DNA from: a virus
Lineage: Duplodnaviria > Heunggongvirae > Uroviricota > Caudoviricetes
IMG/VR virus record: IMGVR_UViG_2563366930_000006
Location: 1 to 39,600 of that record
Length of the DNA stretch: 39,600 bases
Direction: 5' to 3' (one strand)
Shown here in pieces: positions 1-5,822 of the stretch; position 1 is the first letter of the stretch; every line of letters begins with the position of its first letter. The notes below the pieces were generated by a model that was given only the letters and a program-made list of their open reading frames with translations, did not search any database and was not told where the DNA came from. Position numbers and translations under genes: made by a program.

Positions 1-2955
1 TTAGTGCTTCCCTTCTATTAAGTCTAACCTAGCTTTTATTCTTTCTATTTCTCTGCGCTGCCATGCCGCCTCGATATAGAATAAGAGATCAGGTCTGACC
101 CCCCATCTAGATCCTGCTGGCGTTATTTCAACGCGCTCAATGATGTCTTCCATTACCATCACTGGATTATCATCCTCATCAACAATGATGCTCCCGTCAT
201 TATCAGTCAGCGGCATTTCCCTTTGGCCAGTAATGACGTCATCATATACTGCGGGATAATCGTCATAGCAAAGAAAGGCATATCGGCATGTTGTGCTTTC
301 TTCTTCCATGAGTCCGTGAGAAATAAGAACATCACGAAGTTGCTGCGCGATTACACCATGATGTATCCTCGCCCCTTCTTCCCCCTTTATAGCGACAGCG
401 TTCAGCCATTTATAAGCGATATACCTGACGTCACCCCAGGCATCCAGCAATGCTTCGTCAGGAGAGACCGGCTCTGTCTTTAATGTTCCGTCACTGGTAA
501 CCACAGGATTGGAGCCAAGATAAACTGTCGAGAACCTGTTTCCCGGACCACCAAGAGCATTTACATTATCAAGATAAGGTTTAACATCTCCGTTCTCAAA
601 AAGATGTTCGAGTGCGTTATATACCGCGCGACGTGGAGTACTGCTTCCGGAACCATGCAACGTTATCATTGCACCATCTGCTGAAGACGTTGTTTCACCG
701 CCGCTAACGATTAATCTCTGAGCGGTAACATCATCAGACGGTACTTTCTTCGCAATAATGGCGTAATTACCCTCAAGTTTGACTTCCGCGCGAACTTGTC
801 CTGATGTACCTGCATGGACAGTCAGTGACTGGACGGCAACATCATCTGTGAAATCAACGGGTACAGGAACCGTCCTCACGCCTGACGTCGACATAAAAGT
901 AGGAAGCGTTCTGTTAGGAGTGGCTCCGTAGACAAAATCCCTTGAAACAAATTCTTCCTGTTTAATTTTCACCCTGAAACAATACAAATCAGCCGGGTGA
1001 CCATCGTGAACATAAGGATATTTTCTGTTGTTATCCCCTATGCTCCATGGGTTTAGAAAGTCTTCCCCACCGAAAATGTAGTACAGCCAGTTGTCTTTGA
1101 TACAAACTGAACCAACACCAACCGCAGAGTTAACTATTCCGCCCTGATAAATCTGATCAGTAACATTAACCCACTCTACATTATCCAGACTCCACTCATT
1201 GACGTTAACTCTGGTCATAAATGTTCTTGGATAATTTCCTGCATAACGGTTATCAGGTTCTCCTCCTTCCCACTCACCAAATGCGCGCTCACTGCCAAAA
1301 ATAATCAGCTCATCGCCAACTTTGGCAAAAGGAAGGTTTGAGTGATGAACATTATTTGGGAAGCGAAGAGAATTCCATGATGTACCTAAATCAGAGCTTC
1401 TGTGCAATGAACTACCGGGTTGAGTACTTAATGTCCCCCTGGTCGTCAGATACAGAATGCCATCATAATATTTTACACATGGCTCAGATGCATTCGCCTC
1501 ATATTCTACAGGTATGCGTCTGCGAACAAAGCTACCAGGAGAACCGAAAGCATCAGAGAAATAGAGTATCCCAAGCTCGCGTGGATCAATATCACCATTA
1601 TGGTAGCCAACAGCAAAACTGTTATCGCTAATCGTCGCAAAACTGTGAATCTCAGTAACAGGAGTGCTTCCGTCAACAAAAGAAGGAATAGTTCCAAGAC
1701 TGGTTTTTCTCCATGGTGACGAGTGAAATGATGTACCAAAACTCCAGTATCTACCCTCGTTATTCTGATCCACATCCTGGGTATTTTGCGTCGTAACTGT
1801 AAAAGTATTTTTATCAATAACAGTAGTCACCGTCATATTCCCGGTAACACCTGTAACACCAGAGTTTGAGAAGTTGACAAAATCACCAGCAAATAATCCG
1901 TGATCAGTAATGCGAATATAAGCGACTTGCTGATTTGCTGCTTTCGTTATACCACCATAAACGCGAAGGCTGCGACTCATTGGGCGATCCCACAACTCTG
2001 CAACCTGCAGTTTATTTCCGCTCACGGTCCGCGTCTCAATTACAGCAAAAAGGCGATTTCTGACAACCCCCATACTCATGCAGTGATAGTTAACTGTGGG
2101 ATAGTTTTCATGTAAATCTGTAAGCCATTCCGGCGTTGTCCAGGTCTTCCCGTCATCTCCTGAGCGAACCCATGCAACATGGAGGTTATTTACACCATGG
2201 CGGTCTCCAGCCATAAAAGGCGCATAGATGACATTGTCATATACAAACGTTTTATCCTGCGTCCAGGCGTTGTACCACGGTGTATCTGTAATTTTAAATA
2301 ACTCTCCCTGGATAAAATCTTCAGAAGCATAAAAAAGAGGCTGACCCGGTATTCTCTCAAATAAAAAACGAGCATTTTTAAATCGACTGACATCTGGAAG
2401 AGTTGATACTTTAAAAGTAAGCCCTCGCCCATCTATCTTTTCACCACCTGTTGCAACAGAAAGTAATTCTGATAGAGCTGATGTATCATCATGAACACCA
2501 TCACCAATAGCCCCCCAACCTCTTACATCATAACTGTCTCTCCATCTTGCTATCTGAAGTTTTGGGTATTTATTCGCTCCATCTGGGTCTTCTAATTGCT
2601 GCCGTAACTGATCAGGATCATACTTCAGCACATTAGGAAAATAGAACTGCTGTGTACCATACGCATCATAAACAGCCATAGAATGGCCTTGCACGGTTAC
2701 GAATTTGGCAATCTGTCCGTTATATACCGGATATCCAGCAGCGTTAATGATGATTGGTTGCGAAACAGGAACGTGAGAACCGTTTTCGTTCTCCACATAA
2801 ACCTGAATCTGGTTTTCAGGATTTACAGGGTCAGTATCAATTTTACCGATATAAATTTTGCCATTGGCATTTGCTTTAAACGAGCGAGCTAAAGTAAATA
2901 ACTGACTTGGTTGTGAAACAACTACGTTGTATAATTGTTCTGGCATAATAAACAT
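1..2955 (-). CDS. Tailspike protein with P22-type N-terminal head-binding domain and C-terminal intramolecular-chaperone (S74-like) domain
   Basis: 984 aa ORF; N-terminus [37 protein letters not shown] resembles the P22 gp9 head-binding domain; C-terminal ~150 aa resembles the autoproteolytic chaperone of endosialidase-type fibers; stop TAA at 1-3. Confidence 0.9.
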
Positions 2956-2968
2956 TCCGGAGAAAATA

Positions 2969-3469
2969 ATGAGTAAGAGACGTCACGAGGTAGTAACTCG
3001 GGAGCGCCTTATGGAGGTTCTCGATTACAATAAAGAAACAGGAGTTTTCACTTGGAAAAAGAAATTAAGCGCCAGAGGTGCTGTTGGGAAAGTTGCTGGC
3101 ACAATTTCTTATGGATATAACGCAATTAATATTGATGGCGTAAGATATTTTGCACATAGACTTGCCTGGCTGTATGTATATGGCGAATGGCCCAAACAAG
3201 AGATTGACCACATTGATAGAAACAGAAGAAATAACGCAATCTCAAACCTTAGGGATGTCAGCAGAGTCGTAAATGCATTAAATGTCGGACCTCGAAATAG
3301 CAATGCTGGAATCAAGGGGGTAACTTTCTGTCAAGCCAGAAATCAATGGCAAGCTCAGATAAATGTCTCAGGTAAAAACATAACCCTTGGGAGATTCAAC
3401 ACCATTGATGAAGCGGCTATAGCTTATAAGGCAGCAAACATGGTTGCTGACCATCTGTTGAGTAGGTAA
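2969..3469 (+). CDS. HNH homing endonuclease with C-terminal AP2-type DNA-binding domain
   Basis: Motif [18 protein letters not shown] (HNH) followed by [40 protein letters not shown] (AP2-like); ATG at 2969 in the ORF frame. Confidence 0.75.
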
Positions 3470-3611
3470 TGTCTGTCATTTAATTTGCTCCAGATACAAG
3501 GAATCGCCGCAGCATGGCTACGGTTGATGTTTGTTGCATACCGAAATGGTACGATTGTTGATTTGTACAGTAGGTTTTACGATGCCATTCCACCCATTTG
3601 GTGAGGCATTG

Positions 3612-3869
3612 ATGATGTACAGCAAATACGATGAGGCGCAGTTCCACTTGAGGCTTACGCACGAGTTGCACGCTAAGATTAAGCAGCGTGCAAAAATGAA
3701 TAACAGGTCTATCAATTCCGAAATTGTGGCTACGATGGAAGAATCACTCTCCAAACCATCACCTGTAAGCGGGTATCGTGATGAAGAAGAGAGGTTGGCC
3801 TCATTAATCTCGGAGCGAGTAAAAGAAGTTGCGGCTGATATCCTTAGAAAAGAAAAAACCCGCGATTAA
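3612..3869 (+). CDS. mnt: Mnt-like ribbon-helix-helix repressor
   Basis: NNRSINSEIVATMEESLSKPSPVSGYRDEEERLA resembles P22 Mnt; GGTGAGG RBS before tandem ATG ATG at 3612. Confidence 0.75.
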   Translation: MMYSKYDEAQFHLRLTHELHAKIKQRAKMNNRSINSEIVATMEESLSKPSPVSGYRDEEERLASLISERVKEVAADILRKEKTRD

Positions 3870-3880
3870 GCGGGTTTAGT
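3853..3880. terminator. Bidirectional intrinsic terminator between convergent genes
   Basis: Stem CCCGC/GCGGG with loop GATTAA, A-run on one side and T-rich tract on the other; the mnt stop codon lies in the loop. Confidence 0.6.
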
Positions 3881-3883
3881 TGG

Positions 3884-4105
3884 TTAGTTATCAAAAAGTC
3901 CGTACGTTTCTTCTTCTTCAGGTGTAAGGGGAAGAATCTCTACTCTATCTATAGATATCTTTTCAATGTACCCATGAGGTCTACTTAAAATTAAAGCTCT
4001 CTCATGCCACAGAACTCCAAGAATGTGATACCTTCCAGCATCGCCTTTTACCCTGGCTCTTCCTTTGATTCTTGGCGGCATAATGCCATATTTTTTCTTT
4101 GCCAT
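3884..4105 (-). CDS. Hypothetical 73 aa protein, translationally coupled to the upstream gene
   Basis: ORF with ATG overlapping the upstream stop by one base (TAATG); followed by the bidirectional terminator. Confidence 0.45.
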   Translation of the reverse strand: MAKKKYGIMPPRIKGRARVKGDAGRYHILGVLWHERALILSRPHGYIEKISIDRVEILPLTPEEEETYGLFDN

Positions 4106-4833
4106 TATGCAACATTACTCCCATGAATCAGGTGTTGTAGTGCTTTAACACCTTCCTCATTGTAGCGGAATGCTTCCACCTGTTTGCTGGAATGCGCAGA
4201 TTTATCCAGGAAGAACTTCCCGTACTGCTCAGTTTTGAGGTTGTTTGCGTTAGCAATGCGACCAATCTTGTTGGCCGTTACTCCAAGCTGCTCTGCAACC
4301 TCCCCTGCTGAGTAGTAATGCTCTTCTATTGCTGGAAGAGGTATTGCATTAAAACCAACGATCGGGTTGATTATGCTTGCTGCCGCAGTCTGCTTTGCTT
4401 CCGGCGCAAGATTTGGCATCAAATCGAACAGATTGGTAACAGCTTCAACCGTCATTTTCAATGTTCGCGCCTGGCGATACTCAACAAGTCCACTAGACGA
4501 TTTACCGCTTTTAATGTGCGCTTCTTGCATACTTTCAAGTTGGTCTACAAGTGAGCGGCGAACAGCTTTAGATTCACGAGCAGCCACTCGAAGGGCTTGC
4601 TTAATTGACATAACAACTTTTTCAGAAGTTGTCTTGTTTGATTTTTGAACTACGAAAATTTCGTAGTGCTCACCTTCAAGTTCATCCTTAATGCGTGCAA
4701 TAAAGTCGTTATTGCGGACTTCTTTTTCCCCGCACTGTCTACGAGCATGATTGACCATCTCTAACAGGTACTGGCTATCAATGGTTTTATCCGTGACAAC
4801 GGATCCGATGTTTGCTACATTCTTAAAAGTCAT
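4105..4833 (-). CDS. Antirepressor-like protein with C-terminal KilAC-type domain
   Basis: C-terminal YSAGEVAEQLGVTANKIGRIANANNLKTEQYGKFF resembles the KilAC domain; ATG at 4833 with AAGGAA RBS; upstream in-frame codons judged non-coding. Confidence 0.6.
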   Translation of the reverse strand: MTFKNVANIGSVVTDKTIDSQYLLEMVNHARRQCGEKEVRNNDFIARIKDELEGEHYEIFVVQKSNKTTSEKVVMSIKQALRVAARESKAVRRSLVDQLESMQEAHIKSGKSSSGLVEYRQARTLKMTVEAVTNLFDLMPNLAPEAKQTAAASIINPIVGFNAIPLPAIEEHYYSAGEVAEQLGVTANKIGRIANANNLKTEQYGKFFLDKSAHSSKQVEAFRYNEEGVKALQHLIHGSNVA

Positions 4834-4902
4834 TAGGCATTCCTTATGTGGTAGTAAGGGTGTGACATAGGCCGCCAGCAGCACACTGGCGGTTTTCTTT
4901 TT
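4829..4902 (+). ncRNA. Candidate sar-like cis-antisense RNA (copy 2) over the start and RBS of the KilAC-domain gene
   Basis: Extended -10-like TGCTACATT at 4813-4821, then a canonical intrinsic terminator (stem GCCGCCAG/CTGGCGG, then TTTTCTTTTT) at 4871-4902 on the strand opposite the gene. Confidence 0.35.
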
Positions 4903-4921
4903 GCGCCGTCCGGCGCACCAA

Positions 4922-5548
4922 TCAATGAATCCATTCCTCGCCGCGCAGTTTTGCCAGCATTGGCTGAGCGTTCTTTACGACAAAATTGTTGGTATCAAGA
5001 TTCTTCATTTCACGAAGAAGTGATTTCTTGGTTTCTTCTGACATGTAGCGAGTCTCATATGCAATATCGTAAATCCTTCCTGAAAGCTCAGAACCAATTT
5101 GCTTCATTCCTGGGTAGATGTGTTTGCACATTTGTTGACTCTTCTCCATCCACAATTGTAAGTAGCAGAGATTAACCAGTTCTTCGTCAGTAAACTGTTT
5201 TGCAATCGGTGAGCATTCTGCCTGCCGATCCAAAATATCCAGCACCCAGCGGCGGAACTCTTTGGCTACCTGAGTGCGAGCAAACATCGCGATTAGGTGG
5301 GCACCGCGTAGTGAGAAAACACGCACTTTTTTGCGATAATTTCCTGAGGTACTCACTTCGAGTACCTGAGTCATTCCGGCGCTAAACTCATCGCTATACT
5401 TGTTATAAATCATTGTTACTGCACGACTATTTGCGTATTTAAGTGCAGATGCAATATTAGATGATGTAAACCAAACACCATGCATATCACGGGTGGGCAC
5501 CAATTCAACTCCGTGGAAGTTGTAATCTGATTTTGCTACAATATTCAT
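4922..5548 (-). CDS. ant: Antirepressor with AntA/Bro-N-type domain
   Basis: N-terminal region FHGVELVPTRDMHGVWFTSSNIASALKY typical of AntA-like antirepressors; ATG at 5548 with AAGGAAA RBS; sits downstream of arc. Confidence 0.7.
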   Translation of the reverse strand: MNIVAKSDYNFHGVELVPTRDMHGVWFTSSNIASALKYANSRAVTMIYNKYSDEFSAGMTQVLEVSTSGNYRKKVRVFSLRGAHLIAMFARTQVAKEFRRWVLDILDRQAECSPIAKQFTDEELVNLCYLQLWMEKSQQMCKHIYPGMKQIGSELSGRIYDIAYETRYMSEETKKSLLREMKNLDTNNFVVKNAQPMLAKLRGEEWIH

Positions 5549-5625
5549 GTTAGTTTCCTTGCATACGGTTACTGACATAGAGGCCCGGTTTGTGTTCACG
5601 CACTGCCGGGCTTCACTATTTTTAC
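5549..5625 (+). ncRNA. sar: Candidate sar-like antisense RNA (copy 1) covering the ant RBS and the arc-ant intercistronic region
   Basis: Extended -10-like TGCTACAAT at 5534-5542 directly antisense to the ant start; stem GCCCGG/CCGGGC at 5582-5610 then T-rich tract; same architecture as P22 sar. Confidence 0.4.
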
Positions 5626-5795
5626 TGGGCATTAGCTCTTTCCTCTCTCAGGCTTTTAGCCAGTCGCTGCACAATCGCAGAGTTGATAGAAATTCCATCC
5701 ATTTCAGCAACACGTCTAATCTCCTCCTTCATTCGCGCTGGCAAACGAAGCTGGAAACTTTGACTTTTACGACCTGTGTAAAGCACATCTTTCAT
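5622..5795 (-). CDS. arc: Arc-like ribbon-helix-helix repressor
   Basis: 57 aa; SQSFQLRLPARMKEEIRRVAEMDGISINSAIVQRL is an RHH fold; GGGAGGA RBS before ATG at 5795. Confidence 0.75.
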   Translation of the reverse strand: MKDVLYTGRKSQSFQLRLPARMKEEIRRVAEMDGISINSAIVQRLAKSLREERANAQ

Positions 5796-5822
5796 AAGTA
5801 ATCCTCCCACAATGATACCAAC

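Follow-up and report, generated by a model that had tools for sequence, protein, structure and literature searches.

What is an endonuclease gene doing at the very start of the tailspike gene of a P22-like phage, and by which route did it arrive there? The DNA analysed here (the window: the whole 39,600-nt stretch, positions 1 to 39,600 of IMG/VR record IMGVR_UViG_2563366930_000006) is a P22-like (Lederbergvirus-type) phage genome, and thus belongs to the group that is the classic model of mosaic genome evolution and in which tailspikes set host range. An initial annotation had described the locus as a homing-endonuclease insertion that may also have mobilised the receptor-binding module. These two claims fare differently once the gene, the site it occupies and its distribution among relatives are considered together.

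An HNH-AP2 nuclease gene

The open reading frame runs from 2969 to 3469 on the + strand (166 aa plus a TAA stop at 3467-3469), preceded by a GGAG Shine-Dalgarno sequence at 2959-2962, six nucleotides 5' of its ATG at 2969. It stands back-to-back with the tailspike gene on the - strand, in agreement with the divergent arrangement first described. Pfam places an HNH_3 nuclease domain of the I-HmuI-like 'HNN' type at residues 60-103 (3146-3277, +), the match (PF13392) having E = 2.1e-16 and 59.7 bits against a cut-off of 24.8. An AP2-type DNA-binding domain follows at residues 114-156 (3308-3436, +). Pfam scores it below its threshold (PF00847, E = 3.5e-6, 27.7 bits, gathering score 33.3), and a profile built from 11 relatives and compared with the PDB matches the plant AP2 proteins WRI1 (7wq5, 6.6e-7) and TEM1 (7et4, 0.0015) as well as I-HmuI itself (1u3e, 3.7e-7). 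The HNH_3 domain and the WRI1 match bear out the claim of a free-standing HNH gene with an AP2 domain. The protein also matches phrog_99 (5e-63) and is 99.4% identical to Kapi1_066, annotated 'HNH endonuclease'; an NCBIfam search with it gave no match, and PADLOC matches for the gene are confined to generic 'homing endonuclease' models.

None of the catalytic residues is missing. In a pairwise alignment D80, H81, N93 and N102 pair with D74, H75, N87 and N96 of I-HmuI, which we take to be the catalytic histidine with its neighbouring aspartate, plus conserved asparagines, and all four are invariant among the 11 relatives of the window protein. A single-sequence AlphaFold model of the 166-aa protein is poor overall (mean pLDDT 51.6, with the HNH part below 50), but its AP2 part forms three strands (115-123, 126-133 and 136-143) and a helix (146-165), with mean pLDDT values of 64-82 over blocks of 10 residues.

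The insertion point and the relocated tailspike start

The tailspike gene (1-2946, -; longest ORF 1-2955) joins a P22-type head-binding domain to a K1 endosialidase: Pfam finds Head_binding, then the full set of K1 endosialidase domains and a C-terminal chaperone domain. Over nt 49-2946 its DNA is 98.9% identical to the CUS-3 tailspike, and with a K1 endosialidase tailspike of the CUS-3 type the phage should target K1-capsulated E. coli. Two in-frame ATGs could start the gene, an outer one at 2953-2955 with GGA directly against it and an inner one at 2944-2946 (MPEQLY...). The inner ATG is the annotated start in Kapi1 and RefSeq and the sole start kept in all related lineages, where it lies 21-24 nt from the HNH ATG. 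Since it is both annotated and conserved in this way, the tailspike most likely starts at 2944-2946 and the true gap to the HNH ATG is most likely 22 nt; the spacing of 13 bp given initially holds only to the outermost ATG. The 22-nt spacer (2947-2968) carries the palindrome TCCGGA (2956-2961), which gives the HNH gene its GGAG; on the tailspike strand it yields no more than a weak GGAA, 8 nt 5' of the tailspike ATG.

The comparison with phages that lack the gene shows where the insertion took place. CUS-3 and HK620 have no gene at this site, and their tailspike ATG comes directly after the ribosome-binding site GGAGCAAATTAA. The window still has this old ribosome-binding site, with its ATG and five codons, but beyond the HNH ORF, at 3465-3491. 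The leftover ancestral start itself (3465-3479, -) reads ATG ACA GAC ATT ACC (M T D I T), the junction falling after codon 5; its first 14 nt (through ATT AC) are those of the uninterrupted CUS-3 tailspike start, and the HNH stop and part of the last Arg codon are built from these leftover tailspike bases. In the CUS-3 background the junction is seen by comparing ATGACAGACATTAC followed by AGCC in CUS-3 with ATTACC followed by TAC in the window. In the Sf101 background, ATGTCAGATATCACC followed by GCA in Sf101 compares with ATCACC followed by TAC in an IMG/VR locus (L025); written in codons, the empty allele is ATG TCA GAT ATC ACC continuing with GCA AAT, and the filled one ATG TCA GAT ATC ACC continuing with TAC TCA. 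In L025 the local codon is ATC, not ATT, and the stop of the HNH gene is accordingly TGA. The same junction in CUS-3-type and Sf101-type backgrounds places the insertion between tailspike codons 5 and 6. Relative to CUS-3, the window has 605 nt (2860-3464) in place of tailspike nt 16-87, so that the new N-terminus (MPEQLY...) substitutes for MTDITANVIV while the protein length stays at 981 aa.

Alignment with relatives thus delivers both the insert-free alleles (CUS-3, HK620 and Sf101, together with E. coli prophages) and the exact site, and shows that the gene is not a fixed component of this junction. It also agrees with the proposal of a homing-type insertion at a module junction, the site being the annotated boundary bsq1 in the CUS-3 record. 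This conserved boundary sequence, which would act as the right homology arm, spans 3480-3524, includes the old ribosome-binding site GGAGC (3487-3491, -) and is identical or near-identical in Kapi1, CUS-3, JEP4 and HK620; a literature search on the CUS-3 boundary sequence found no paper. The gene had been placed between the tailspike and an mnt-like gene. The neighbours are correct, since an Arc/Mnt-family ribbon-helix-helix gene, whose JEP4 homologue is annotated mnt, lies outside the cassette at 3612-3869 (+), but the position is not intergenic: the insertion interrupts the ancestral tailspike ORF after codon 5.

For annotation, the consequence is that the tailspike N-terminus of carriers becomes MPEQLY... 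instead of MTDIT..., its start having been relocated, and that the strong orphan ribosome-binding site and ATG upstream can mislead gene callers. In the window the orphan pair opens a 20-codon ORF (3419-3491, -) that runs antisense into the HNH 3' end; between lineages this ORF varies in length (8-48 codons) and sequence, and the ribosome-binding site and ATG are always retained. A GTAGG before the leftover start was considered as a sign of common ancestry of cassette ends and rejected, as the search pattern forced the AGG and only two further nucleotides were shared.

The recoded tailspike start also appears to hold the expression signal of the nuclease. It had been argued that the HNH promoter must overlap tailspike coding sequence, and the best candidate does so: a putative sigma-70 promoter at 2907-2935 (+) consists of TTGGTT (2907-2912), a 17-nt spacer and TATAAT (2930-2935), the latter sitting in tailspike codons 4-6, 33 nt 5' of the HNH ATG. 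Most diverged lineages keep the -10 element in place despite encoding other tailspike residues there; it takes the form TGnTATAAT in L043 and L051 and TATGAT in L044, and is weak in L047. The cassette of the NRG857C type described below has TTGTATAAT at a similar distance. A consensus promoter scan of 2600-4000 gave no match, and missed this candidate because its -35 matches at only three of six positions, so that it is solely the conserved -10 element that argues for the promoter. On the opposite strand, tailspike expression in P22 depends on late transcripts reading through the ant terminator, and the HK620 record annotates this terminator just upstream of the tailspike gene. By this layout the late transcripts of carriers presumably have to run through about 520 nt, antisense to the HNH ORF, before the tailspike, and the orphan ribosome-binding site and ATG would come first.

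Distribution, linked tract and other occupants of the site

The cassette is present at 80% coverage or more in 15 of 5426 complete E. coli genomes, compared with up to 554 that have an uninterrupted CUS-3-type junction, a figure to be read as an upper bound because pieces up to about 630 nt apart were joined and a few carriers of the other nuclease genes may be counted in. None of the 15 has an annotated endosialidase tailspike, and the combination in the window may be unusual. Among sequenced phages a close copy was found only in Kapi1, the remaining tblastn matches being below 60% identity, and a scan of GTDB species representatives gave a single close copy, in Escherichia sp. ESNIH1. IMG/VR contributes 22 loci with a 99%-identical gene and nine with versions 77-81% identical, or 77-82% once the full length is aligned. 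All 31 abut a P22-type tailspike start, and in all of them the leftover ribosome-binding site, ATG and 4-5 codons follow the HNH gene. The near-identical copies stand beside at least 15 tailspike lengths (446-981 aa), with at least three right-flank classes and two leftover-start types. More distant phages have the 77-82%-identical versions at this site, and selection on them is strongly purifying: dS between lineages is saturated, dN is 0.12-0.21 and dN/dS, where estimable, is 0.03-0.06. One IMG/VR copy (L052, 3001-3497) has a 1-nt deletion at nt 351 that puts the HNH and AP2 parts in two frames; the copy may be degenerating, or the deletion may be an assembly error. Locus L030 was considered as an HK620 tailspike with the cassette and set aside, since the similarity extends only to nt ~615, at 87%; the clean matched pair of filled and empty alleles is the window and CUS-3.

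A short piece of the tailspike gene is linked to the nuclease gene. We compared the first 480 nt of the tailspike in an alignment of four non-carriers with 23 carriers, the window among them, whose HNH genes are 99% identical. Over nt 1-18 the carriers do not differ from each other (0%) while differing from CUS-3, HK620 and NRG857C by 47%, and over nt 19-87 the corresponding values are 1.2% and 38%. Beyond this the distinction collapses: the differences among carriers and between carriers and the same non-carriers are 5.7% and 7.3% for nt 88-200, and 11.9% and 9.6% for nt 201-340, so that from nt 88 onward filled and empty tailspike alleles cannot be distinguished. The diverged tract thus covers 87 nt (2860-2946, -), made up of the new start MPEQLY and the recoded codons 7-29. 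The changes in nt 19-87 are mostly synonymous, as seen from the carrier peptide compared with NVIVSMPSQLFTMARSFKAVA. We propose that it may serve as a self-immunity tract, or that it is a co-conversion tract.

That the tract might be an allelic variant unrelated to the gene was largely rejected, because among the coverage-ranked matches listed the only E. coli genome with the tract and without the gene is GF43. In this strain (L007, 3480-3600) the recoded part spans nt ~27-87 behind a native MTDSINA start, and with its first ~26 nt native a recombinant or a loss seems likely; an IS903B copy is present in the immunity region of this prophage. The tract lends no support to the suggestion that the element mobilised the receptor-binding module. 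It ends at nt 87, about 250 nt before the boundary between the head-binding and receptor-binding parts (nt ~345), and from nt 88 to this joint the carriers are as diverse as non-carriers, with at least 15 tailspike lengths behind it. Such a pattern would be expected of a cassette entering many backgrounds, or of modules swapped behind the cassette by the usual recombination, rather than of a cassette that brought a module along.

The window's gene is one of several occupants of the tailspike-start site. A second HNH-AP2 gene (169 aa, 42% identical over the core) is found in NRG857C and 14 other E. coli genomes (15/5426), and ends at the same leftover tailspike start. Here the tailspike start is native and there is no diverged tract, and the immunity-tract idea therefore cannot be general. 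The insert in NRG857C is flanked by two diverged copies of the tailspike start region; loci of this type (2999-3508 in L005, which is NRG857C, and also L006, L014 and L017) occur in no sequenced phage. In E. coli GDSC2227PM (L006, 2539-3508) an intact ORF of the second type persists in a decayed prophage remnant, which lies beside csc sugar genes and also holds a tailspike pseudogene and fragments of neighbouring genes. A third HNH-AP2 gene, which encodes 162 aa and shares 43% identity with that of the window, occupies the same site in 7 of 5426 genomes and has its own diverged tailspike 5' tract; examples are E. coli WP4-S18-ESBL-08 (L060, 2856-3344) and an IMG/VR locus (L011, 1-145). Altogether 37 of the 5426 complete E. 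coli genomes have one of the three nucleases at the site. Phage JEP4, finally, has an AT-rich, non-HNH insert of ~275 nt at the same junction (L003, about 3343-3616). Its annotated tailspike begins with an N-terminal extension, MNRRLFFKTIASLSAVIPFSS..., that resembles a signal peptide; this start is probably mis-called, MPDITPNVV being the likely true one.

Explanations for the cassette and its relation to known systems

Taken together, the domains with their conserved catalytic residues, the patchy presence, the exact site, the linked tract and the convergence of three nucleases argue for a homing cassette. We consider it likely, with fairly high confidence, that a free-standing homing endonuclease gene of the HNH-AP2 type lies here in a compact ~605-nt cassette (2860-3464). 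The parts of this cassette are the nuclease ORF on the strand opposite the tailspike, the 22-nt spacer with ribosome-binding sites facing both ways, the new tailspike start and the recoded first 87 nt. The nuclease would be made from the promoter embedded in tailspike codons 4-6 and, in a P22-like phage or prophage sharing the cell, would recognise tailspike alleles that lack the insert by their conserved 5' end and cut or nick them there. Repair of the break from the insert-bearing genome would copy the cassette in, with the head-binding coding region from nt 88 onward and the boundary sequence upstream of the old start as homology arms. The carrier itself would escape cutting, its site being split by the insertion and its 87-nt tract being about 40% diverged, and late transcription would read antisense through the HNH ORF to reach the relocated tailspike start. 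In this scheme it is the cleavage of insert-free alleles, the cut position, the timing of expression and the immunity conferred by the tract that we infer. The sequence on which the three nuclease genes have converged owes its conservation to the head-binding domain it encodes.

Several observations weigh on the other side, among them the -35 of the proposed promoter with its three matches of six and the lack of a diverged tract beside the NRG857C-type gene. With both flanks highly conserved among the P22-like phages, an insert of any kind could be moved by ordinary homologous recombination without a nuclease, and the non-HNH insert of JEP4 at the same junction counts against homing. The purifying selection and saturated dS at a fixed position would also fit long-term retention for the benefit of the phage. 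This second possibility leads to the strongest alternative, in which a prophage expresses the gene as an exclusion or competition nuclease against P22-like phages without the insert that superinfect or are co-induced, cutting them at the conserved tailspike start, and the copying of the cassette is a side effect. Besides dN/dS values of at most 0.06 with saturated dS at a position fixed across lineages, such a role would account for the apparent sigma-70-type -10 element of the gene, which faces opposite to late transcription and hints that the gene is expressed independently of the late programme, and for the intact second-type ORF in the decayed GDSC2227PM remnant. Kapi1_066 is absent from the list of undetected genes in an RNA-seq study of the Kapi1 lysogen (PMC12922286), a weak indication because spontaneous induction confounds it. 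The PADLOC result, with its restriction to generic 'homing endonuclease' models, has also been counted in favour. Against this role, the gene occupies no more than about 2% of the related junctions in E. coli prophages, a low share for a function of general use, and the frameshifted L052 copy is what one expects of a selfish element. We regard exclusion as the primary role as unlikely, though it overlaps with homing and does not exclude it. A related, speculative extension is that at least three HNH-AP2 nucleases contest the tailspike start as prophage weapons against incoming insert-free relatives, and that breaks ~350 nt from the joint between the head-binding and receptor-binding parts raise recombination at this joint and so contribute to the well-known shuffling of receptor modules; this too we think improbable, to about the same degree.

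The gene could instead be a passive passenger (moron) that moves only by homologous recombination between conserved flanks, with a nuclease that is inactive or irrelevant to its spread. Nearly all P22-like phages do have these conserved flanks, a module boundary is annotated at the site, and JEP4 has an unrelated AT-rich insert there. A passenger does not readily explain why three different HNH-AP2 genes converged on the same nucleotide junction, why the catalytic residues are invariant under strong purifying selection, or why a sharply bounded, about 40% diverged tract lies exactly where the target site is expected, and we consider this account distinctly less probable than exclusion. Least credible by far is a packaging-associated HNH protein (of the HK97 gp74 type, with terminase) or an endonuclease encoded in a self-splicing tailspike intron, for which one can cite the generic HNH motif and the fact that the leftover 14 nt joined to ...C AAC GTA happen to be in frame: the neighbours are the tailspike and Arc/Mnt-family genes with the large structural ORFs beginning about 4 kb away, the gene is absent from about 96-98% of relatives, and the ORF, which runs antisense to the tailspike and takes up nearly all of the insert, is accompanied in every lineage by a new tailspike ATG at a conserved distance from GGAA or GGAG. 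Specifically, a group I intron is ruled out by the antisense ORF, the new ATG in each lineage and the lack of any Rfam match to a structured RNA or intron at the locus at E up to 1; with its own ribosome-binding site and ATG, the gene has neither an intron nor an intein context.

Returning to the homing cassette, its closest counterparts are already in the databases, where the gene is annotated as an HNH endonuclease in Kapi1 and RefSeq. Kapi1_066 (QOC59582.1) of phage vB_EcoP_Kapi1 lies in the same cassette as that of the window; the junctions agree, as does the altered tailspike start MPEQLY..., and RefSeq entries from E. coli prophages named 'HNH endonuclease signature motif containing protein' represent the same cassette type. 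Kapi1 differs from the window in its receptor-binding module, which is 791 aa long and not an endosialidase, and in its right flank. The accessible papers on Kapi1 do not mention the HNH gene, and a literature search with most subscription journals outside its reach found no paper on the gene or its site, on the replacement of the tailspike start or on the several occupants.

In its nuclease core the protein resembles I-HmuI, the nicking endonuclease of phage SPO1 (1U3E), which has the same HNH_3/'HNN' core without zinc-binding cysteines and in which the D-H...N...N residues are conserved. I-HmuI is encoded in a group I intron in sense orientation and has a different C-terminal DNA-binding module, whereas the window gene is free-standing, antisense to the gene it interrupts and equipped with an AP2 domain. 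The Seg enzymes of phage T4 are GIY-YIG nucleases and thus belong to a different family. In arrangement T4 SegG and MobE, which are known for marker exclusion and for co-converting flanking markers, are like the window gene in being free-standing, by or inside a conserved essential gene and linked to flanking polymorphism, a pattern that co-conversion or target immunity would produce (SegG is cited in PMC10448857). The window phage is temperate and phages of the T4 type are lytic, so that homing would have to occur during superinfection or co-induction.

Proteins combining HNH or HNN with AP2 are an established class of phage homing endonucleases (PMC2248197, PMC10448857). The same two-domain architecture is found in the Xanthomonas phages Xp10, OP1 and Xop411, in T5, T1 and Rtp, and in the ICP1 'IPA-HNH' protein, and the class shares with the window the boxes HRLAW, WP, DH and NLR, a sporadic occurrence and some degenerating copies (PMC2248197, PMC10448857). 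Neither conserved flanks nor a fixed site turned up for the HNN-AP2 genes in the Xanthomonas phages. The type described here differs from them in that the site is defined to the nucleotide and is common to three gene types, and in that an essential structural gene receives a rebuilt start from the cassette. As a mobile element the cassette is clear, fairly ordinary and of an expected kind; what the locus offers is a homing site that is known to the nucleotide and polymorphic in nature, within a group of temperate phages. Because matched filled and empty alleles exist (window and CUS-3) and Kapi1 is in culture, homing, marker exclusion and co-conversion can be tested outside the lytic systems of the T4 type.

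On the other side of the cassette, the Arc/Mnt-family gene 3' of the HNH gene is convergent with the antirepressor operon at a shared hairpin terminator (3856-3877). The consensus scan gave no promoter between the HNH and Arc/Mnt-family genes, so that their co-transcription is possible. The immunity region (3884-5810) has a small 73-aa ORF without a family match 3' of an Arc-like gene and two tandem antirepressor-like genes. One of these (4105-4884) has no Pfam match and corresponds to KilA by the JEP4 annotation, and the other (4922-5632) carries Bro-N and P22AR_C domains.
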